From Candidatus Buchananbacteria bacterium CG10_big_fil_rev_8_21_14_0_10_33_19 (GTDB taxonomy: Bacteria > Patescibacteriota > Patescibacteriia > 2-01-FULL-39-33): a stretch of DNA of 64,000 nucleotides. Location of the stretch: the NCBI GenBank assembly GCA_002773855.1, contig PEZY01000012.1:68255-132254 (forward strand), read 5' to 3'. Shown one piece after another: positions 7,614 through 58,140 of the stretch. The number at the start of each line of letters is the position of its first letter. Position 1 is the stretch's first letter. A model generated the notes under the pieces. That model did not search any database. It was given only the letters and a program-made list of their open reading frames with translations, and was not told the origin of the DNA. The translations under genes were made by a program, and so were the position numbers.

Positions 7614-8084
7614 ATGAGAGGAAAACAAGCGCCAAAACGACCAATTGCTCCTGATACTAAGTTTAATCGAACTGATTTAGCTAAGTTTATCAATTACATT
7701 ATGCAACGCGGTAAAAAAACTATTGCTGAAGATATTGTTTATGAAATGATGCAAATTATTTCTGATAAAACTCAATTAGATCCAGTAGAAGTTTTTGAAT
7801 CAGCTATTAGAAATGTATCGCCAACAGTAGAAATTAAGGGTCGTCGAGTTGGTGGTGCCAACTATCAAGTACCGATGGCTGTTCGATCAGAGAGAAGCTT
7901 TACTTTAGCTTGTCGTTGGTTGATTACTGCCTCAGCAGCTAAAAAGGGCAAGAAAATGTCAGAAAAATTAGCTGAAGAATTTATTGCAGCTCATAACAAT
8001 GAAGGAATTGCTGTTAAAAAGAAACAAGATACCTATAAAATGGCCGAAGCCAATAGAGCTTTTGCTCACTTTGGACGAAATTAA
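7614..8084 (+). CDS. rpsG: 30S ribosomal protein S7
   Basis: Typical S7 sequence (YIMQRGKKTIAE...VEIKGRRVGGANYQVP). Confidence 0.9.
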   Translation: MRGKQAPKRPIAPDTKFNRTDLAKFINYIMQRGKKTIAEDIVYEMMQIISDKTQLDPVEVFESAIRNVSPTVEIKGRRVGGANYQVPMAVRSERSFTLACRWLITASAAKKGKKMSEKLAEEFIAAHNNEGIAVKKKQDTYKMAEANRAFAHFGRN

Positions 8085-8182
8085 TAAATAATTTAAGTCA
8101 GTTGGTGTTTCGTGGTGGTGGCTGGTAGGAATTTATAAAATAGACCACAGCCTACAACCTACGGACTACAACCTAAACAATT
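8085..8182 (+). repeat. Bipartite intergenic element, instance a (GTGG/GTAG-rich arm, TTTATAAAAT, CTAC-rich arm ending ACCTAA then ATG)
   Basis: taaataatttaagtcagttggtg...ggtagg aatttataaaat agaccacagcctacaacctacggactacaacctaaacaattATG; see findings. Confidence 0.5.
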
Positions 8183-10327
8183 ATGCCCAGAAAACAAACA
8201 TTAGACAAAATTCGTAATATTGGGATTATTGCCCATATTGATGCCGGAAAAACCACTGTTTCCGAAAGAATTTTATTTTACACCGGAAAAAAACATAAAA
8301 TTGGTGAAGTTCATGAAGGTGAAGCTACTATGGATTGGATGGAACAAGAACAGGAAAGAGGTATTACTATTACTTCAGCGGCGACTACTTGTTTTTGGCC
8401 CAATGCCGCTTGGTTAGGCGGTGGTGATATTCAAATTAATATTATCGATACCCCTGGTCACGTAGACTTTACCGCTGAAGTAGAAAGATCACTCCGCGTT
8501 TTAGACGGTGGTGTGATTGTTTTTGATGGTGTAGCCGGTGTCGAACCTCAATCAGAAACTGTGTGGCGCCAATCAGAAAAATATCATGTGCCAAAAATTG
8601 GTTTCATCAATAAGATGGACAGAATGGGCGCTGATTTTTACTATGATTTAAAAACTATCTACGACAGATTAACGCCTCATGCTCATCCTGTTCAATTACC
8701 AGTTGGTGCGGCTGATACCTTTACCGGTATTATCGATTTGTTTGATATGAAAGCTCGAATTTATTCTGATGATATGGGTACTAAATGGGAAGATACCGAA
8801 ATTCCAGATGATGAAAAAGACAGAGCGGCTGAGTATCGAGCAAAATTAGTTGAAGCGATTGTGGAAAATGATGAAGCTTTGATGGAAAAATATTTAGCTG
8901 GTGAAGAAATCCCAGTAGCGGATTTGAAAAAAACTTTAAGAGCAGCAGTTATTGCTAATAAAATTGTGCCAATTATGTGTGGTTCAGCTTTAAAGAACAA
9001 AGGTGTTCAATTTTTGTTAGATGCTGTTTCTGAATACTTACCATCACCAATGGATATCGATCCACCAATGGCTCATGATCCAGATGACATAACAAAAGAA
9101 ATTAAAGTAGAAGTAAAAGACGAGGCGCCATTAATGGGCTTGGCATTTAAAATTGCCACCGATCCATTTGTTGGTAAATTAGTATTCTATCGAGTTTATA
9201 GTGGCGTTCTACGATCTGGTTCTTATGTTGTTAATCAAACTACTGGTGACAAAGAAAGAATCGGCCGTATTTTAAGAATGCACGCCAACTCTCGGGAAGA
9301 AGTTCAAGAGGTTTATTCCGGTGAAATTGCCGCTATCGTTGGTCTAAGAAGTACCACTACTGGTGACACTATCTCTGATCCAACTGTTAAGGTGTTGTTA
9401 GAAAACATTACTTTCCCAGATCCAGTTATTGATATTGCGGTTGAACCAAAAACTAAAGCGGATCAAGAAAAAATGGGCTTAGCTTTGTCTAAATTAGCGG
9501 AAGAAGATCCAACTTTTAGAGTAAGAACTGATGAAGAAACTATGCAGACGATTATTTCTGGTATGGGTGAACTTCATTTGGATATTATTGTGGATCGGAT
9601 GCGACGTGAATTTAAAGTGGAAGCGAATATTGGTAAACCTCAAGTAGCTTATCGTGAAACTATTAAAGGTTCAGCTCAAGCTGAAGGTAAATATATTAAA
9701 CAATCTGGTGGTCGCGGACAATACGGCCATTGTTGGATTAAATTAGAACCGACCGAAAAAGAAGCAGAAGGTGTTCAAAAAGAGTATGTGTTTGTGGACG
9801 AAATTAAAGGTGGAGCTGTACCAAAAGAATTTATTAAACCAATTGATAAAGGTATTCGTGAAGCGATGGCTAGAGGTATTATCGCTGGCTTCCCACTGAT
9901 TAATGTTAAGGCTACATTGTATGACGGATCTTTCCATGATGTTGACTCTTCTGAAGGCGCCTTTAAAATTGCTGGTTCCATGGCTTTCCAAGATGCCGCT
10001 AAAAGATCACAACCAATTTTACTAGAACCAATTATGAAAGTAGAAGTGATTACCCCAGAACAGTTTATGGGTGACGCTATCGGCGACTTAAATTCTCGTC
10101 GAGCAATTATTGGTAATATGGAAGATAGAGGTATTGGGGCTTCTGCGGTCAAAGTGATTAGTGCTGAAGTACCATTATCTGAGATGTTTGGTTATATGAC
10201 TACACTTAGGTCTCTAACTCAAGGCCGAGCTTCTTATACTATGGAATTTTTGAAATATAACGAAGTGCCAAAGAATGTAGAGGAAAAGATTAAAGAAGAA
10301 AGAGGAACTGCGAAAACTAGAATCTAA
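8183..10327 (+). CDS. fusA: Elongation factor G
   Basis: [10 protein letters not shown]-domain, full-length 714 aa, canonical position after rpsG. Confidence 0.95.
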
Positions 10328-10342
10328 ACTTTATATAAAAAA

Positions 10343-10370
10343 ACACCTCGCCGGAGCGGGGTGTTTTTAT
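10343..10370 (+). terminator. Rho-independent terminator after fusA
   Basis: acacctcgc-cgga-gcggggtgt hairpin followed by TTTTT. Confidence 0.65.
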
Positions 10371-10436
10371 TTTTTATAGATGAACATACCATGGTGTGTT
10401 CATCTATAATTATTATCTTTGTTATCTTTCATATTA

Positions 10437-11062
10437 TTGTCATTGCGAGCAGATCCTTCGTTTCACTCAAGATAAACTCCACAATACTATATTTATATCA
10501 CTAAATCACATTGGTACTTTTTTAGAAAAAGTACCACAAAAATCGCGACAGTAAAAAATTTATAGTCGAAGCTAAAACTTCGTCCCGCTAATTTTCAAAA
10601 CTCGAAACTTTTTTATTTGTATTGGTGAACAAGTTTCTCAAACATTGAAAATTTTGGGCGTAGACGACGCCCAATCACTAGGACTCCCGTTTCATCTTCT
10701 CCTTAAATTTTTAAATTGTCGCAGATTTATGAAGATATTTATTTATAAAATATATAAATAAATTCTATCATATGAAAAATTAAGTAGAAAAACTATAATA
10801 AATTAAGCGATTGTGAGTTGTCTGAGAACAAATTTTCCGCATGCCTGTCTGCCGGTAGGCAGGTTTGAACCATTTTCGATATATCCAGATAAATGAAAAT
10901 GGTGAGTTCGGAAAATAGCGTAGAGTTATTATAGTTTTTCCTTAATTTTATCGTCGCTCGTAGTTTTTGGGTTACTTTTTGCTATCAAAAAGTGACGGGA
11001 AGAAAAAAAATGACGTTTGCGAGTTTTGCGGTACTTTTGCGGTCAAAAATGCCATAGAAATA
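10437..11062. repeat. Copy 1 of a structured intergenic repeat (conserved core about 10497..10737, plus a copy-specific internal segment)
   Basis: Near-identical core to 56775..57005 (cattggtacttttttagaaaaagtaccacaaaaatcgcgacagtaaaaaatttatagtcgaag...). Shared 5' end (attgtcatt-g/t-cga) and 3' end (acgtttgcgag-y-tttg...ggtac). No ORF over 60 aa. Confidence 0.6.
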
Positions 11063-11263
11063 TTGCTAAAGAAAATGAGATTCTCATGATGACAATAAAT
11101 TAAAAAACCTCTAAATTAACCCAAATTCGAACACTTCAACCCTAGTCTGAAGTGTTCAGTAAAAACCATAAAATTAAGCCAATTATCAGTTTTAGCTAAA
11201 AAACTTGATATATTCCCAGTTTTCCATTAGAATTAACCCATATCTTATAATTTTCCTAAAAAT

Positions 11264-11659
11264 ATGGAATCTATTCAAAAAGTGATCAATTTGATCAAAA
11301 AAACTGGGGATAAAGTCGTAATTTTAGACAAATCTGGTGATTTGGACTGCGTGATTATGAATATTAGTGATTATGAGAAATTAGTCTTCGGCAAGACCGA
11401 GGTTAAGGGCTTGACAGAAGACGAATTATTAGATAAAATAAATCGTGATATTGAAATCTGGAAAGACTCTCAGGAAAATGGACATTTGCCAATTGATCAA
11501 CATGATTTTTCGCAAGAATTAGACAAAAATAGTGAACCATTAATTGATTATAATTTTAATGAAATGCCGCCGGTGGCTAGTAATCAAGATTTTTCTCTAA
11601 ATTTAGATAATTCTGAAGAAGAAGACGAGGATCGCTATTACTTTGAACCAGTGGAATAA
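11264..11659 (+). CDS. Hypothetical acidic protein; N-terminal 45 aa faintly Phd/YefM-antitoxin-like
   Basis: MESIQKVINLIKKTGDKVVILDKSGDLDCVIMNISDYEKL resembles the Phd/YefM N-terminal fold pattern, followed by an acidic tail. No toxin partner is present. Weak call. Confidence 0.3.
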   Translation: MESIQKVINLIKKTGDKVVILDKSGDLDCVIMNISDYEKLVFGKTEVKGLTEDELLDKINRDIEIWKDSQENGHLPIDQHDFSQELDKNSEPLIDYNFNEMPPVASNQDFSLNLDNSEEEDEDRYYFEPVE

Positions 11660-11678
11660 CTGTAGATAATTAGACCCC

Positions 11679-11706
11679 TTGCAAAATTTATAGTTTTTGT
11701 TATAAT
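11679..11706 (+). promoter_or_regulatory. Putative sigma70-type promoter upstream of tuf (long leader)
   Basis: TTGCAA, 16-nt spacer, TATAAT, about 295 nt upstream of tuf. Confidence 0.3.
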
Positions 11707-12000
11707 AAGTAAACATTTTTGCTAAAAAGCAAAAAGTTTCGTTTTTAAACGATTTTTTAAATTTAAATAAATAAATAAGTGTTCGAGGCCTGGGTAAAAC
11801 TCCCAGTAACGGAACCATTGTTGAATGGTTTTTGATCATAGGTTTCCACAATTTTGAGGAAAATTTTATAAAAATTTTCGAAGCTTAATAAATTAAGTAG
11901 AGATAATTTAAGAAAATTTAACCAAAATTTGGAAGCTTTGGCAAAAGAATTATTCAACTATGGTTTCGATGGTGAGGGTCTCGAGAAGGAATAAACTACA

Positions 12001-17076: not shown

Positions 17077-17592
17077 ATGGAAGTTAGAGCTAAAGCAAAA
17101 TTTATAAGAATTTCTCCAAAGAAAGTTAGATTACTGGCTGATTTAGTCCGTGGTTTAGACGTGGAAGAAGCTTTGGTTCAATTACAATTTAATAAAAAAG
17201 GTGCGTCACTACCGGTAGCTAAATTAGTAAAATCTGCAGTAGCTAATGCTGAAGAAAATGAAGATTTAAAAAGAAACAATCTTTTTGTAAAAGAAATTAG
17301 CGTAGATGGTGGCCCAAGTTTAAAACGTTGGATGCCAAAAGCGATGGGTAGAGCAACACCTTTAATTAAAAGATCTTCTCATATTACTGTAGTTTTATCA
17401 GAAAAAGTACCAACTACTAAGAAAGAAAAGAAAGAAGTTTCTAAGGATGATATTATCAATATTGAAGATTTAGGCAAGATTGGTCATGATGACAAAAAAG
17501 AAGATAAGAAGTCAGATTCTGGTAGTAAAAAAAGTGGCAGCACAAGTAAAAAAGTAACTAATAAAATTTTTAATAGAAGAACTGGTAGCTAA
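17077..17592 (+). CDS. rplV: 50S ribosomal protein L22 with C-terminal Lys/Ser-rich extension
   Basis: MEVRAKAKFIRISPKKVRLLADLVRG core. Confidence 0.9.
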   Translation: MEVRAKAKFIRISPKKVRLLADLVRGLDVEEALVQLQFNKKGASLPVAKLVKSAVANAEENEDLKRNNLFVKEISVDGGPSLKRWMPKAMGRATPLIKRSSHITVVLSEKVPTTKKEKKEVSKDDIINIEDLGKIGHDDKKEDKKSDSGSKKSGSTSKKVTNKIFNRRTGS

Positions 17593-17682
17593 TAAATAAG
17601 CAAGTAGTGAGTAGTGAGTAGTGAATAAAAGTAAAATATTTTTATTAACCACTCACTACCGACTACAAACTAATATATAGAT
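17593..17682 (+). repeat. Bipartite intergenic element, instance b
   Basis: taataaataagcaagtagtgagtagtgagtagtg aataaaagtaaaatatttttattaa ccactcactaccgactacaaactaatatatagatATG; gtagtgagtg / cactcactac arms can pair. Confidence 0.5.
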
Positions 17683-21846: not shown

Positions 21847-22203
21847 ATGAAAAAGTCACAGAAAATAAAAAATGAGGCTAGAGCAAGAAGACAAAGAAGA
21901 GTCCGGGCTAAAGTGTCTGGTACTGCTACTTGTCCAAGGCTTTCAATTTATCGAAGTTTAAACCATGTTTACGCTCAGCTTATTGATGATCAAAACGGCA
22001 AAACTATTGTTAGTGCTAGAGATTCAGAAGTTAAAGATGTCAAAACTAAGATGGAAAAGGCTACTGCTGTAGGTAAATTAATTGCTGAAAAGGCAGCTAC
22101 TAAGAAAATTGAAAAAGCTGTTTTTGATAGAGGCATGTTTAAGTATCATGGCCGCGTAAAGGCTGTGGCTGACGGTGCTAGAGAAGCCGGATTAACAATA
22201 TAA
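21847..22203 (+). CDS. rplR: 50S ribosomal protein L18
   Basis: [18 protein letters not shown]...[14 protein letters not shown]. Confidence 0.9.
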
Positions 22204-22297
22204 ATAATTTAAGTAAGTAGGGAGTAGTAAGTAGTAAGTGTGGATTATAAAAATAATTCTACAATCTACCACCTACTGCCTACCACCTAATAATAAT
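22204..22297 (+). repeat. Bipartite intergenic element, instance d
   Basis: taaataatttaagtaagtagggagtagtaagtagtaagtgtgg attataaaaataatt ctacaatctaccacctactgcctaccacctaataataatATG. Confidence 0.5.
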
Positions 22298-22888
22298 ATG
22301 GCAGAAAAAGATACCAACAAAAAAAGAATAAGACCAAAGAAAGAGCAACCTGAATTTGATCAGCAGATTGTTGATTTAGCTCGTGTTACTAGAGTTATGG
22401 CCGGCGGAAAAAGAATGCGTTTTAGAGCTTGTGTTGTAATTGGTGATAAAAAGGGCAGAGTTGGTGTTGGTCTAGCCAAAGGTAAAGATGTGTCACTAGC
22501 TGTATCAAAAGCTGTTGCTAAAGCTGAAAAGAATTTAGTTAAAGTTAATATTGTTGACGGCACTATTCCCCACGAAATTTACATTAAATTGGGTGCGGCC
22601 AAGATATTACTTAAGCCAGCGCCAGAAGGTACTGGTATTATTTCTGGTGGTGCAGTTCGAATTGTTTTAGAATTGGCTGGCATCAAGAACGTAGTTTCTA
22701 AGATTATGGGTACTAATAACAAGGTTAATAATGTTGATGCTACTATTAAAGCTTTGACTATGCTAAGAAAAGTTGATAGAAAGGCTAAAAAAGATAATGC
22801 TAAGGAAGTTATCAAACCAGAAGTTGTAAAAGCTGAAGAAACTAAAGCAGATAAAAAAGATATTAGTCAAAAAGAAAATAAAAAATAA
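22298..22888 (+). CDS. rpsE: 30S ribosomal protein S5 with Lys/Glu-rich C-terminal extension
   Basis: Start at ATG 22298 (MAEKDTNKK...). RVTRVMAGGKRMRFRACVVIGDKKGRVGVGLAKGKDV core. The upstream part of ORF-track ORF 22238 is the intergenic element. Confidence 0.9.
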   Translation: MAEKDTNKKRIRPKKEQPEFDQQIVDLARVTRVMAGGKRMRFRACVVIGDKKGRVGVGLAKGKDVSLAVSKAVAKAEKNLVKVNIVDGTIPHEIYIKLGAAKILLKPAPEGTGIISGGAVRIVLELAGIKNVVSKIMGTNNKVNNVDATIKALTMLRKVDRKAKKDNAKEVIKPEVVKAEETKADKKDISQKENKK

Positions 22889-22958
22889 TTAGTTAGATAG
22901 TAGTGAGTAGGAATTTAAAAAAAATTCTACAACCTACAACCTACAACCTAATAATAAT
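22889..22958 (+). repeat. Bipartite intergenic element, instance e (in the position where L30 is normally encoded)
   Basis: taattagttagatagtagtgagtagg aatttaaaaaaaatt ctacaacctacaacctacaacctaataataatATG. Confidence 0.5.
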
Positions 22959-23402
22959 ATGAATTTAACTTTATCAAATTTAAAACCAGCTAAAGGTTCT
23001 ACTAAAAGAAGAAAGAGAGTTGGTCGTGGTGGTAAACGTGGTACCTACTCAGGTAAGGGTTTGAAAGGCCAAAAAGCTCGAAGCGGTGTTTCTGGTTTAA
23101 AAGCCTTGGGTTTCAAGCAAACTTTACAGAGAACTCCAAAATTGCGTGGCTTTAAAAGCTTGAAAGCTAAAATGGCCATTGTTAATTTATCTGATTTAGA
23201 TAAGCTATTTAAAGATGGCGATAAAATTGCCCCAAAAGATCTAATTAAAGCCGGTTTAATTGAATCAGCTAAGAGTGGTGTAAAAGTTTTAGGCTTTGGT
23301 CAATTATCTAAAAAACTAGAGGTGACTGTTAATGCTTTCTCAAACTCAGCCAAAGAAGCCATCGAAAAAGCTGGTGGTAAAGCAGAAATTATTGTAAAAT
23401 AG
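22959..23402 (+). CDS. rplO: 50S ribosomal protein L15
   Basis: MNLTLSNLKPAKGSTKRRKRVGRGGKRGTYSGKG. Confidence 0.95.
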   Translation: MNLTLSNLKPAKGSTKRRKRVGRGGKRGTYSGKGLKGQKARSGVSGLKALGFKQTLQRTPKLRGFKSLKAKMAIVNLSDLDKLFKDGDKIAPKDLIKAGLIESAKSGVKVLGFGQLSKKLEVTVNAFSNSAKEAIEKAGGKAEIIVK

Positions 23403-50088: not shown

Positions 50089-50514
50089 ATGTCATTTTTT
50101 GGTACAATATCCTCTAAAAAGCATAATAGTTTGAGATTAATTATTCAATTAGCTCAGAGTTATACCGACAAAAAACCAGTTTCTTTGTCGGAAATTAGTT
50201 CAGAAGAGGGTATTTCTATTAAATATTTAGAACAATTAATCATGCCCTTTAAAAGGGCTGATATTATTAAAAGTCAACGCGGTCGTAGCGGTGGCTATAT
50301 TATGATTAAGGATCCTAAAAAAATATCGCTCAAGGAAATAATTTGGCTGATAAATGATAGTCCAAGTTTAGCAATTTGCTTAGATAAGGATTACGACAAA
50401 TCGTGCAATTATGATCATAATTGCATCTCCAAAAATATTTGGGGAAAAATTCAAAAATCAATGGAAGGCTTTTTGGATAAAATATATTTATCTGAAATAT
50501 TGGAAAATAAATAA
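50089..50514 (+). CDS. Rrf2-family transcriptional regulator, IscR-like with Fe-S cysteine triad
   Basis: Rrf2 winged HTH; C-x8-C-x5-C (CLDKDYDKSCNYDHNC); heads the suf operon. Confidence 0.75.
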   Translation: MSFFGTISSKKHNSLRLIIQLAQSYTDKKPVSLSEISSEEGISIKYLEQLIMPFKRADIIKSQRGRSGGYIMIKDPKKISLKEIIWLINDSPSLAICLDKDYDKSCNYDHNCISKNIWGKIQKSMEGFLDKIYLSEILENK

Positions 50515-50591
50515 TTTAAGTAAGTGGCTGGTAATAAGTAGAAATTTTAAAAAATAATTCTACAATCTACAACCTATAACCTAATAAAAGT
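50515..50591 (+). repeat. Bipartite intergenic element, instance f (outside the ribosomal cluster)
   Basis: taatttaagtaagtggctggtaataagtag aaattttaaaaaataatt ctacaatctacaacctataacctaataaaagtATG. Confidence 0.5.
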
Positions 50592-51338
50592 ATGGCTAAA
50601 ACAGTATCTAATGAAATGTCAGTTGAAAATCTTTTCGCCAGTATTGGCGACAAGCAAATTTTAAAAGGCATTGATCTAAAAATTAAACCGGGTAAAATAA
50701 TTGCTTTGATGGGACCAAATGGTTCTGGTAAATCCACTTTATCCCAGATAATTACCGGTCACCCCAATTATCAGGTTGATAAGGGTAAAGTGGTGTGGCA
50801 AGGAAAAAATATTTTAAAACTTGATCCAGATGTTCGGGCTAAAATGGGCTTATTTTTATCTTTCCAGTATCCTAACGAATTGCCTGGGGTCAATATGTAT
50901 GATTTCCTTTCAACTTGTTTTCAAAGTATTTATGGTGACAAAAAACATAAAAAAGATTTTGATAAAATATTAAATGAATCGCTAAAGTCATTAAAATTAT
51001 CTAGTAATTTTTTAGATCGCTCAGTTAATGAAGGTTTCTCTGGTGGTGAAAAGAAAAAATCTGAAATATTACAGATGAAAGTTTTGGCTCCTAAAATTGC
51101 GATTTTAGATGAAACTGATTCTGGTTTGGATATTGATGCACTAAAATTAATTGCTAAAAATATTTCTGATTTAAAATCACCAAAGATTGGCTTTTTAGTG
51201 ATTACTCATTATAAACGTTTACTTAAATATATTAAGCCTGATGAAGTGCATATTATGTTAGATGGTAAAATTGTTAAATCTGGTAAATATGATCTAGTTG
51301 ATAAACTAGAAAAACAAGGTTACGGTTGGCTTAAATAA
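50592..51338 (+). CDS. sufC: Fe-S cluster assembly ATPase SufC
   Basis: Walker A GPNGSGKST, signature FSGGEKKK, Walker B ILDETDSG. Confidence 0.9.
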   Translation: MAKTVSNEMSVENLFASIGDKQILKGIDLKIKPGKIIALMGPNGSGKSTLSQIITGHPNYQVDKGKVVWQGKNILKLDPDVRAKMGLFLSFQYPNELPGVNMYDFLSTCFQSIYGDKKHKKDFDKILNESLKSLKLSSNFLDRSVNEGFSGGEKKKSEILQMKVLAPKIAILDETDSGLDIDALKLIAKNISDLKSPKIGFLVITHYKRLLKYIKPDEVHIMLDGKIVKSGKYDLVDKLEKQGYGWLK

Positions 51339-56653: not shown

Positions 56654-56658
56654 AATAA

Positions 56659-56681
56659 AAGGCGCGAAAGCGCTTTTTTTT
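56659..56681 (+). terminator. Rho-independent terminator after uppS
   Basis: ggcgc-gaaa-gcgc followed by TTTTTTTT. Confidence 0.6.
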
Positions 56682-56721
56682 ATTTTATTATATTTAGTTA
56701 TTGCCATGGGATTCCTTTGAT

Positions 56722-57177
56722 TGTCATTTCGACCGTAGCGAAGCGTAGTGAAGGAATTCTTTTTATTCTAAGTCATATTGGTACTTTTTTAGAAAAAGTA
56801 CCACAAAAATCGCGACAGTAAAAAATTTATAGTCGAAGATAAAACTTCGCTCCGCTAATTTTCAAAACTCAAAACTTTTTTATTTATAATAGTCGAAAGT
56901 TTTTCAAACATTGAAAATTTTGGGCATAGACAATGCCCAAACGCTAGAGCTCTCGTTTTATCTTCTTTTTAAATTTTTTAATTGTCGCAGTCTTATTAAG
57001 ATATTTATAATAATAAAATGCAAACATTAAAAAATATTGTGTCAATTTTATATAAAGCGAGCGCTAGAGACAATTATTCTGTCGCTATTTTGATTAATTG
57101 GCTCTAGTGAGTGTGTATAAAATTGGCCATGATTTTTTACGTTTGCGAGCTTTTGGTTACTTTTGGCGGTACAAAAG
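56722..57177. repeat. Copy 2 of the structured intergenic repeat (core about 56775..57005), directly abutting GC-rich island 1
   Basis: Core near-identical to copy 1. Three hairpins carry compensatory substitutions between the copies (gggcGt..aCgccc vs gggcAt..aTgccc; Gaaact..agtttC vs Aaaact..agtttT). Confidence 0.6.
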
Positions 57178-57195
57178 TAATAGAAGACTATTTTA

Positions 57196-57240
57196 AAATA
57201 AAAAAAGAAGCCGTCCGATCGCATGGTGCGATTGGACGGC
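57196..57240 (-). terminator. Rho-independent terminator of the minus-strand island operon
   Basis: 14-bp stem gccgtccgatcgca-tgg-tgcgattggacggc; on the minus strand it is followed by TTCTTTTTTTATTTT. Confidence 0.6.
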
Positions 57241-57251
57241 TTGGTTGGTGG

Positions 57252-57617
57252 TTAGAAGGTGTGGCAGCACTTGTAACAGTACCACTCACAACCCTCACCT
57301 CCTAGACTGGAGGAGGCGACACGACCAAGTGATCCACAATTGGGACACTCGGGCGTTTCGGTATCTTCCCAGGCCTTATCGCAGACTTGGGAGATAGCGG
57401 CTTCAACTTTGGCTTCGACATCGGCCAGAGGAGTCTCGCGAATCCACTGGGCAACATAGCCTCTGGTGATGTCGAAACTGAGTGTTTCGCTACCAAAGGA
57501 ATTCCGAACTTCTTGTGGCCAGTAGGGAATCTGGAGATTGAAGGCGAGGAACTGGTAGAGCTCGTATTGCCTGTCATTCAACCCATCGGGCCGTTGGTCG
57601 CGACTGAGACTTTTCAT
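57252..57617 (-). CDS. Hypothetical 121-aa protein with Gly-Gly followed by a Cys-rich C-terminal tail (GC-rich island 1, gene 3)
   Basis: ATG overlaps the upstream stop (ATGA). C-terminus CPNCGSLGRVASSSLGGEGCEWYCYKCCHTF. Foreign-looking GC content. Confidence 0.5.
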   Translation of the reverse strand: MKSLSRDQRPDGLNDRQYELYQFLAFNLQIPYWPQEVRNSFGSETLSFDITRGYVAQWIRETPLADVEAKVEAAISQVCDKAWEDTETPECPNCGSLGRVASSSLGGEGCEWYCYKCCHTF

Positions 57618-57727
57618 GGCCTGTCTCCGTGCATGCTACAGTCGCACTGGTGAATGGACAGTCCGGTCTTGGGACAGGCGCAGTCACAGTGATCGGTTGG
57701 TAGCCCACACAATTTACATTTATCCAT
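57614..57727 (-). CDS. 37-aa Cys/His-rich micropeptide (island 1, gene 2)
   Basis: MDKCKLCGLPTDHCDCACPKTGLSIHQCDCSMHGDRP; AGGAGG 8 nt upstream of the ATG; start overlaps the gene-1 stop (ATGgaTAA). The longer ORF-track version (57614..57874) would overlap gene 1 by 155 nt. Confidence 0.5.
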   Translation of the reverse strand: MDKCKLCGLPTDHCDCACPKTGLSIHQCDCSMHGDRP

Positions 57728-58019
57728 TATTGATTTCCTCCTGTTGTTTTGCCCACCGATGATTGGATTCCTCAATCTTGAAGACCCAACGACGTAGGGT
57801 GATTCTGGTGCCAACTGCCAAATTATGACAGAGTTTGGAAATACGATCGGGAATGGTGATGTTTTTTGCCACACCTAGAGTGGCGATCACTAAACCCAAC
57901 AAGACCAATATCAGATCGAACCAAATGTTGATAAAGGGCAAGAAATCACCCGTGACCAACATCACAAGACCAAGGCCAAAAAACATCACGCCCCATTTTT
58001 TTGCAATGCTTACAAACAT
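57720..58019 (-). CDS. Small two-TM membrane protein, 99 aa (island 1, gene 1)
   Basis: AAGGAG 8 nt upstream of the ATG; two hydrophobic helices; GC-rich codon usage unlike the host. Confidence 0.55.
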   Translation of the reverse strand: MFVSIAKKWGVMFFGLGLVMLVTGDFLPFINIWFDLILVLLGLVIATLGVAKNITIPDRISKLCHNLAVGTRITLRRWVFKIEESNHRWAKQQEEINNG

Positions 58020-58140
58020 GGCTATTTCTCCTTAGTTTTCCGCATTTCAGTTAAAAACGAACTATTACCATTATAGCATACTTTAGTATTATTGTCAAGT
58101 GTATTGAGCTTATTTTAGTATCAAGGTAGAATTAAGCCAT

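Follow-up and report, generated by a model that had tools for sequence, protein, structure and literature searches.

Two intergenic loci in a stretch of 64,000 nucleotides from a Candidatus Buchananbacteria bacterium (the window) resemble each other closely, which raises the question of whether a secondary structure is selected there and what kind of element would carry it. A preliminary description had proposed a two-copy structured intergenic repeat and named a non-coding RNA family, a MITE-like non-autonomous mobile element and an attachment or recombination site as candidates.

Extent and fold of the repeat

A repeat search of the window aligns positions 10501-10742 with 56768-57008 as a direct repeat of 85-86% identity. 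The 223-nt core (10508-10730 in copy 1, 56775-56996 in copy 2) has 26 differences between the copies, corresponding to 88% identity, and the similarity persists for ~30 nt on the 3' side of the closing stem. Beyond this the flanks are unalignable, with the exception of two short motifs. The unit of copy 1 that is shared with copy 2 spans 10501..10760 on the + strand and consists of a conserved leader of ~11 nt, the 223-nt core and a conserved 3' tail of ~30 nt; its covariance-model score is 272 bits. Homology with copy 1, the covariance model and the fold place the unit of copy 2 at 56768..57025, also on the + strand. The proposed two-copy repeat is thus borne out. Upstream of copy 1, a TATATT hexamer ends at a distance of 7 nt from the homology limit. 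The window contains two full copies and three diverged or partial inverted copies; covariance-model and nhmmer scans of it and of 19 kb on its flanks reveal no further ones. Identical loci of the same strain recur across many metagenome assemblies.

Both full copies form very stable folds, with energies of -65.5 kcal/mol (z = -7.1) for copy 1 and -68.4 kcal/mol (z = -8.8) for copy 2, and none of 200 shuffles folds as well. The consensus fold begins with a hairpin (P1) and the linker CAAAAAUC; an irregular closing helix of ~40 bp (P2-P5) then leads to a three-way junction with P6/P7 and P8. In copy 1, on the + strand throughout, P1 is found at 10512..10536 as the hairpin TGGTACTTTTT-TAG-AAAAAGTACCA with a 3-nt UAG loop. 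The hairpin GGTACTTTTT-TAG-AAAAAGTACC described earlier with 10 bp is present here and has 11 bp. P1 is followed by the linker CAAAAATC (10537-10544), for which the family consensus is R-CAAAAAUCGC, and P1 together with the linker forms the best conserved module of the family. The 5' arm of the closing helix (10545..10585, P2 to P5) pairs with the 3' arm (10681..10722, P5 to P2), and the long-range pairing previously proposed between CGCGACAG and TTGTCGC is confirmed in the consensus fold. P6 (10590..10653; AATTTTCAA / TTGAAAATT) encloses a conserved internal loop, AACTC ... TCAAACA, as well as the variable hairpin P7 (10604-10637). The hairpin P8, TTGGGCGTAGACGACGCCCAA (10654..10674), is optional; between copies 1 and 2, both partners of one of its pairs are altered from G-C to A-U. 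In copy 2 the corresponding + strand positions are 56779-56803 for P1, 56812-56852 and 56947-56988 for the closing-helix arms, 56857-56919 for P6/P7 and 56920-56940 for P8.

The shape of the repeat is preserved rather than its sequence

A comparison of copies 1 and 2 shows that none of the 70 consensus pairs is broken, while four pairs (76:176, 77:175, 97:130 and 153:161) are changed on both sides and three are changed on one side to G-U. The minimum-energy fold of copy 1 itself was used as a reference to avoid circularity. In copy 2, 74 of its 77 pairs survive, compared with 68.2 ± 1.7 of 77 after random substitutions of the same kind (permutation test, P = 0.0011), so the changes are paired more often than expected by chance. 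Compensatory changes had been reported for three hairpins, of which two hold: GGGCG..CGCCC versus GGGCA..TGCCC changes from G-C to A-U on both sides at pair 153:161, and GAAAC..GTTTC versus AAAAC..GTTTT does the same at pair 97:130. The third hairpin, tcgaag-ctaaaa-cttcg, can be read in the sequence, but the native pairing is probably another one: long-range helices displace it, and in these GAAG, AAAC and GUCC find their partners in distant CUUC, GUUU and GGAC. A double compensatory change that had been overlooked, with UC turned into CU and GA into AG (76:176 and 77:175), is located in this long-range pairing.

A covariance model was built from copies 1 and 2 and run on CPR loci fetched via EF-G. 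It finds one full-length match with 62 bits (model R1, E ~1e-14), which rises to 139 bits with model R2. The match lies at 9732-9937 of L104 (the same copy as L023 123-328), in a genome whose EF-G is just 61% identical to that of the window. No other new copy is found in the ~480 kb of CPR loci scanned by the covariance model, which included the fusA neighbourhoods of the relatives with 94, 89 and 84% EF-G identity and 19 kb more of the host genome. Full copies number only two in ~83 kb of the host genome and one in ~42 kb of the L104 genome, and the family so far comprises three full and two to three degenerate sequences. With the L104 homolog and the inverted copies described below, the family is not confined to the two copies first noticed. 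The model also scores 38 bits on a giant-virus MAG (L118), where it hits a long AT-rich palindrome on both strands; this match was set aside as chance. GTDB species genomes and IMG/VR contain no exact match to the 21-mer of the P1-P2 junction, and BLAST of the locus against phage and plasmid collections finds nothing similar. Scanning JGI metagenome contigs with a 19-mer yielded 11 matches, and all of them are chance matches of ~20 nt according to BLAST and the covariance model.

In the L104 homolog, the inner P1 stem, the loop and the linker are identical to those of copies 1 and 2. The outer P1 stem is changed from GGTAC/GTACC to GCCAC/GTGGC, and P2, P3, P4, P5 and P6 likewise differ by paired changes. 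P8 is missing, and P7 is a different, G+C-rich hairpin with a UUC triloop; an earlier reading of this loop as a UUCG tetraloop was dropped. The minimum-energy fold of L104 has the same architecture (z = -7.6). In a three-sequence alignment of L104 with copies 1 and 2, which was fitted to the structure and is biased in this respect, and on which the inner helices rest, 22 pairs are changed on both sides and 99.5% of the cells are paired. Both-side changes occur in each of P2, P3, P4 and P5. When the partners are slid by 1-3 columns as a control, only 1-3 both-side pairs result, and none of 500 shuffles reaches the observed values. Two checks are free of the bias of this alignment: a MAFFT alignment based on sequence only recovers the covariation in P1 and P2, and the minimum-energy fold of L104 agrees in architecture, as noted above. 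The AACUC/UCAAACA loop is kept in copy 1, copy 2, the inverted copy 1b and the L104 homolog, whereas the P6 and P7 stems around it differ. The proposal that covariation reflects a selected secondary structure is thus borne out, with P ~0.001 between the copies and agreement of a third, distant homolog: the base pairing of the family is under selection, and its shape is preserved rather than its sequence. For so few sequences this covariation evidence is solid; the host clade is poorly explored.

The fold is almost strand-symmetric. The - strand is as stable or better in absolute energy with similar z-scores; over the union of pairs from both senses, G-U cells number 4 in the + sense and 9 in the - sense, and the alignment-fold energies are -49.1 and -54.1 kcal/mol, respectively. 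The + sense is favoured by the promoter located just upstream in L104 and by the common orientation of all three full copies with their flanking genes; no terminator is found after the + sense RNA. The - sense is favoured by the linker, which becomes a terminator-like U-tract right after the G+C-rich base of the closing helix, and by the conserved loop, which reads GUUUGA/GAGUU with tandem G-A. Speculatively, the loop in the - sense could be a non-canonical K-turn-like motif.

Inverted copies and genomic setting

Three further members lie on the - strand of the window. Copy 1b (10756..11001) is a diverged copy arranged tail-to-tail with copy 1, with a covariance-model score of 21-27 bits (E = 2e-5, whole window, filters off), and is also found by nhmmer from sequence only (E = 1e-6). 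It keeps P1 (at ~10971-10996), P2/P3 and P6 with both-side changes as well as the AACUC...UCAAAC loop, while P8 is decayed and a longer insert with a G+C-rich hairpin replaces P7. Next to it, copy 1c (11004..11058) is a partial copy that consists of the 5' module P1-linker-P2 alone (11.7 bits, local search). At the other locus, copy 2b (57012..57186; 25.6-28.4 bits, E = 1e-5, whole window) is shortened and diverged: P1, the linker and P2/P3 are present, with P2 and P3 kept through both-side changes, and 63 nt replace the junction. Copies 1b and 2b are also stable in their own folds (z = -4.7 and -5.2, respectively). In the inverted copies the stem sequences differ from those of the cores, with complementarity retained.

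These copies account for one of the motifs that had been taken as ends of the element. The supposed right end, ACGTTTGCGAG with its hairpin, lies at 11013-11023 within copy 1c and at 57139-57149 within copy 2b. It is the reverse complement of P1-linker-P2 in these diverged inverted copies, and for this reason it is not a terminus. The left motif ATTGTCATT(G/T)CGA, taken as the start of the element, fares no better: it is spaced differently from the core at the two loci, and L104 lacks it. The motif ATTGTCATTGCGA, 60-75 nt upstream of the core at 10436..10448 (+ strand) with a twin at 56720-56732, has 4 matches at <=2 mismatches where 2.06 are expected, which is barely above chance. The left motif is probably a separate short repeat and not a terminus of the element.

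The three full copies are located after fusA, after uppS and before a pilin-like gene. The claim that the two copies of the window lie downstream of terminators is correct, with intrinsic terminators at 10339-10368 (after fusA) and 56657-56678 (after uppS). The neighbours of the copies comprise fusA, a Phd-like ORF, uppS, the ORFs of a GC-rich island and the pilin-like gene. Copy 2 abuts this island (57205-58035), which has its own consensus promoter and terminator. In Pfam, PHROGs and PADLOC, the island ORFs give weak zinc-ribbon matches only and ORF131 a weak Phd/YefM match only. The L104 element sits between a strong promoter, TTGTTA-N16-TGCTATAAT, and the pilin-like gene, and begins ~7-12 nt after the promoter. 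In its sister species L109, an identical promoter and the same gene are separated by an unrelated insert of ~205 nt.

At syntenic loci, to which the comparison refers, the relatives L098-L103 (EF-G 94, 89 and 84% identical) have no copy within 10 kb of fusA. Positions 10373-11198 of the window have no counterpart in them, and their fusA-tuf spacers hold other variable DNA. The fusA terminator is common to these relatives, and homology with the window resumes near 11199, upstream of a conserved Phd/YefM-like ORF. The corresponding sites without the element hold other DNA and are not clean empty sites. Intact and decayed members of the family occur in lineage-specific intergenic DNA with a patchy phylogenetic distribution, and the fusA-tuf and uppS-rarA spacers are marked as hot spots of genome plasticity.

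Neither consistent target-site duplications nor integrase or TnpB-like genes, both suggested for inspection, were found in the DNA analysed. The window contains no transposase, integrase or reverse transcriptase, and neither tnpA nor tnpB is present in the DNA examined. Under three boundary definitions no target-site duplication is consistent across the copies, with isolated AT-rich 5-8-mers only, and the outer ends of the unit have no terminal inverted repeats. The arms of the closing helix are inverted repeats, with P1 and the 3' tail of ~30 nt lying outside. Each unit has one P1-type hairpin, and the nearby P1-like hairpins are inverted.

Candidate explanations and known systems

Among the candidates named at the outset, the MITE-like element is the one we retain, at somewhat less than even confidence. 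The repeat would represent an undescribed CPR family of MITE-like, non-autonomous structured repeats of ~220-260 nt, which are gained, duplicated and lost in intergenic hot spots. The selected feature would be the single-strand fold, as a transcript or as ssDNA, and propagation or retention would be limited to copies that keep the fold. A factor encoded elsewhere in the genome, or by a virus, may recognise P1-linker and the closing helix. New copies would insert between genes, directly behind terminators or promoters and beside older copies, which would give rise to tail-to-tail pairs of one intact and one decayed member. After insertion they could be co-transcribed with their neighbours, and in L104 the element would be the 5' UTR of the pilin-like gene.

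The strongest competing explanation is a family of host non-coding RNA genes, a trans small RNA or a cis leader, which would be maintained because it benefits the organism and would have spread by duplication and occasional horizontal transfer, with decaying paralogs as its inverted neighbours; we give it a modest chance. It would explain the strong covariation over deep divergence and the conserved loop flanked by covarying helices, although these two features fit a mobile repeat equally well. The position of the L104 element just after a strong promoter and before the pilin-like gene, the co-orientation of the three full copies with flanking genes, the TATATT before copy 1 and the low copy number also speak for a host RNA. 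However, the three full copies stand in three unrelated contexts, L109 has unrelated sequence at this place, the + sense lacks a following terminator and the transcribed strand is not assignable from sequence. A mobile repeat is preferred over a host RNA gene because decayed copies adjoin the intact ones and close relatives lack the element at the syntenic sites. A riboswitch or cis-regulatory leader in particular was rejected on the three unrelated contexts and on L109, where the same promoter and gene occur without the element. If the mobile repeat were instead a classical MITE, moved as dsDNA by cut and paste, the long stem would arise only incidentally, from terminal inverted repeats that a transposase recognises. 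This is quite unlikely. The closing helix does form an inverted repeat, imperfect and ~40 bp long, inverted P1-linker modules of ~70% identity bound the composite loci 10508..11058 and 56775..57186, and MITEs typically have such a size and such a stable fold and no ORF (PMC3184786). On the other hand, target-site duplications are missing under any boundary choice, the L104 copy has no inverted P1 partner, both-side changes also occur in P6, P7 and P8, which are not terminal repeats, and the best conserved part, P1, is a hairpin outside the palindrome.

An attachment or recombination site, or a border of the neighbouring GC island, is very improbable. It was suggested by the apparent link to acquired cargo, of which the abutment of copy 2 on the island stands, and the contigs of relatives break just upstream of rarA. 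The link itself fails: the island is not tied to the element because a relative (L114, RarA 95% identical) has a variant of the island and a homologous terminator with different DNA at the position of the element. In addition, no cargo accompanies copy 1 or the L104 copy, and no integrase is present. Hardly credible is a small protein or type I toxin whose mRNA would be the fold. Long pairing between 5' and 3' regions is typical of type I toxin mRNAs, and an ORF of 38/39 aa (10645 and 56911) is open in both copies. However, 16 of its 18 codon differences between the copies are non-synonymous and 2 synonymous, it starts with TTG without a Shine-Dalgarno sequence, L104 has ATA in place of this start codon, copies 1b and 2b do not contain the ORF, and it has no Pfam match. 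The region thus bears no sign of a conserved ORF, and as judged from these sequence features the element is non-coding. A type I toxin-antitoxin system was rejected, as no conserved small hydrophobic ORF exists and L104, copy 1b and copy 2b all lack the ORF.

No known RNA family fits the element in the Rfam search that the preliminary description had proposed. At the gathering threshold, Rfam 15 identifies only 4 tRNAs in the whole window and does not match the element. Scans of both loci and L104 with permissive E-values give only sub-threshold chance matches outside the core. 6S RNA has a rod-like fold with a large central bubble, and its model (RF00013) gives no match even at E <= 10; in the element the 5' side of the three-way junction has just 4 nt, and a 6S RNA was rejected. 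Group IIC introns insert after terminators and are characterised by domain V/VI and a 5' GUGYG consensus; no group II intron model in Rfam matches, and the unit has only ~260 nt. The literature on CPR structured RNAs or MITEs and on the GTCATTGCGAG motif yielded nothing relevant.

Single-strand folds matter in IS200/IS605 PATEs and in the TnpB omega RNA. Their hallmarks are a pair of similar subterminal hairpins, one at each end and both in direct orientation, together with a conserved tetranucleotide at the flank and tnpA/tnpB in the genome. The element resembles them in its asymmetric ends, in the lack of terminal inverted repeats and target-site duplication, in a subterminal hairpin ~12-16 nt from one boundary and in a covarying structure of 150-200 nt. 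It differs in that the DNA examined has no tnpA/tnpB, Rfam gives no IS605-orfB match, the other end has no second direct P1-like hairpin and no flanking tetranucleotide is definable. The IS110 bridge RNA is a non-coding RNA of ~180-220 nt that is encoded by a mobile element and starts with a 5' stem-loop. The element shares the size class and the 5' stem-loop start. Its single nested long helix with a junction contrasts with the consecutive stem-loops and two programmable internal loops of bridge RNA, and a bridge RNA was rejected, as no ORF follows any copy and no DEDD recombinase gene adjoins. ERIC (127 bp), Correia, RUP and bcr1 of the Bacillus cereus group are bacterial MITE-like intergenic repeats that fold as RNA (PMC3184786). 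Like them, the element is short and intergenic, has no ORF, often lies just 3' of genes, where it would be co-transcribed, forms a very stable imperfect palindrome and is patchy among related genomes in plastic regions. Unlike them, it is about twice as long and branched, with a three-way junction and a separate 5' hairpin, has no target-site duplications or terminal repeats, occurs in very low copy number, shows no sequence similarity and resides in a CPR host. In behaviour the element is therefore nearest to repeats of the ERIC/Correia/bcr1 type (PMC3184786) and in anatomy nearest to ends of the IS200/IS605 type, and in the DNA examined it does not show the defining features of either.

There is a small but real chance that the family is either a new structure-dependent mobile class that spreads by way of a single-stranded RNA or DNA fold, without terminal repeats or target duplications and with P1-linker shared with the viral arrays described below, or a new regulatory RNA of pilus or translation-factor operons in these episymbionts. 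If the former is true, it would imply a host- or virus-encoded machinery acting on the fold in CPR bacteria. CPR bacteria (Patescibacteria) have tiny, gene-dense genomes, and to our knowledge almost nothing is known of their non-coding RNAs and small mobile elements. Here a branched fold of ~220 nt is kept through >20 paired substitutions between genomes sharing 61% EF-G identity. The covariance model and the P1-linker motif provide a searchable model for a clade-wide census, which could reveal a new RNA gene or a new mode of spreading for small elements; if it yields just a few more silent copies, the family would be an ordinary orphan repeat.

The P1-linker module also occurs on viral contigs. 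A relaxed pattern, TTTTTTAGAAAAAGT-N4-CAAAAA, matches 15 IMG/VR contigs; some matches in giant-virus MAGs look like low-complexity chance, and the gene neighbourhoods of the arrays are uninformative. In four of these contigs (L119, L123, L125 and L129), P1-linker is repeated in tandem units of 53-60 nt, each consisting of NNAC-T6-AG-A5-GTNN followed by AGCAAAAA and a short second hairpin. The tandem units share with the element the module NNACTTTTTTAGAAAAAGTNN and R-CAAAAA, followed by a second hairpin that varies in its stem. They differ from it in their array arrangement and in that the second hairpin has 5-8 bp, whereas the body of the element is branched and comprises 180 nt. The stem of the second hairpin varies between tandem units by paired changes. 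The P1-linker module could serve as a palindrome for protein binding, as a hairpin promoter or as a terminator pair.

Variable DNA around fusA

A comparison of the spacer between fusA and tuf was made in the window (10328-12000), in three relatives (L098, 12146-13931; L100, 12146-14437; L103, 12146-13308), in the distant CPR genome locus L104 (17692-19423) and in its sister species L109 (17721-20619). Among these CPR lineages, it forms a hot spot for variable DNA. Its cargo across the lineages includes an AAA-type kinase, pilin-like genes and small Cys-rich ORFs, and a Phd/YefM-like ORF is found immediately upstream of tuf in every contig that reaches this gene (the contigs of L098 and L099 lack tuf). 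In the window, a palindrome with a perfect 16-bp stem, TTATAGATGAACA..TGTTCATCTATAA, follows directly after the fusA terminator (10374-10409). It holds a promoter-like site, TGAACA-18-TATAAT, and is part of a lineage-specific segment.

On the other side of the gene, in the rpsG-fusA spacer, a long hairpin of ~140 nt is conserved in the L104 clade (L104, 15234-15371; L109, 15308-15442). The covariance model of the CPR element matches it weakly, with 17-20 bits; the hairpin is probably a structured leader in its own right. In two further CPR genomes, the EF-G match is stretched over ~3 kb for a protein of 714 aa (L018, 1759-4939; L019, 6001-9021). This span suggests that an insertion of ~1 kb, either an intron or an intein, interrupts fusA there.

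The surroundings of copy 2 and the uppS-rarA spacer

A GC-rich island lies beside copy 2 of the CPR element (window 57205-58100), with a GC content of 0.43-0.48 vs ~0.32 elsewhere. Three small ORFs are found on its minus strand, a membrane-like one of 99 aa, a Cys-rich one of 86 aa and one of 121 aa that weakly matches a zinc ribbon; none of them has a match in PHROGs or PADLOC. They are accompanied by a perfect TTGACA-17-TATAAT promoter on the minus strand (58098-58070) and by a terminator (57209-57243). A variant of this island is carried by the relative L114. The contigs of two close relatives start just upstream of rarA (1458 nt upstream in L114, 35 nt in L115). The uppS-rarA spacer is thus a place where assemblies tend to break off, as expected of a repeat or a strain-variable site.

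Tandem hairpin units and the L109 insert

The modular layout of the CPR element matches that of tandem units of 53-60 nt on four IMG/VR contigs (L123, 183-400, L119, 4787-4875, and L125, 731-857, all on the minus strand; L129, 1599-1725, plus strand). Each unit consists of a perfect hairpin NNACTTTTTTAGAAAAAGTNN resembling P1, the 11-bp hairpin of the CPR element, then AGCAAAAA and a short second hairpin, which differs through paired changes. In L123 the units are followed by 14-nt iterons, ACTGTCGGAATCAT.

In L109, the exact position held by the CPR element in L104 is occupied by an unrelated insert of ~205 nt (9780-9985), between the prfA-side promoter and a pilin-like gene. It contains five TCATTAGGA-like tandem repeats and a hairpin, GTCATCCCAGCG...GGGATCC. 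This hairpin resembles the motifs GTCATTGCGAG / GTCATTTCGACC at window positions 10439 and 56723.

Other repeats in the window

A repeated leader motif is found just upstream of start codons at 8083-8180, 17590-17635, 22197-22300, 22879-22961 and 50504-50594. It starts with AATAAATAATTTAAGT; a stretch rich in purines comes next (GTAGTGAGTAG / GGTGGTGG), and a pyrimidine-rich stretch complementary to it (CTACAACCTACAACC) closes the motif a few bases ahead of the ATG. The motif may form a conserved 5' UTR hairpin. At tRNA-Trp (43228-43299), a perfect 49-bp direct repeat (43283-43331 and 43491-43539) comprises the last 17 nt of the tRNA and its terminator. The two copies enclose a G+C-richer filler of 159 bp, and the pair looks like an attL/attR scar of an element once integrated there.
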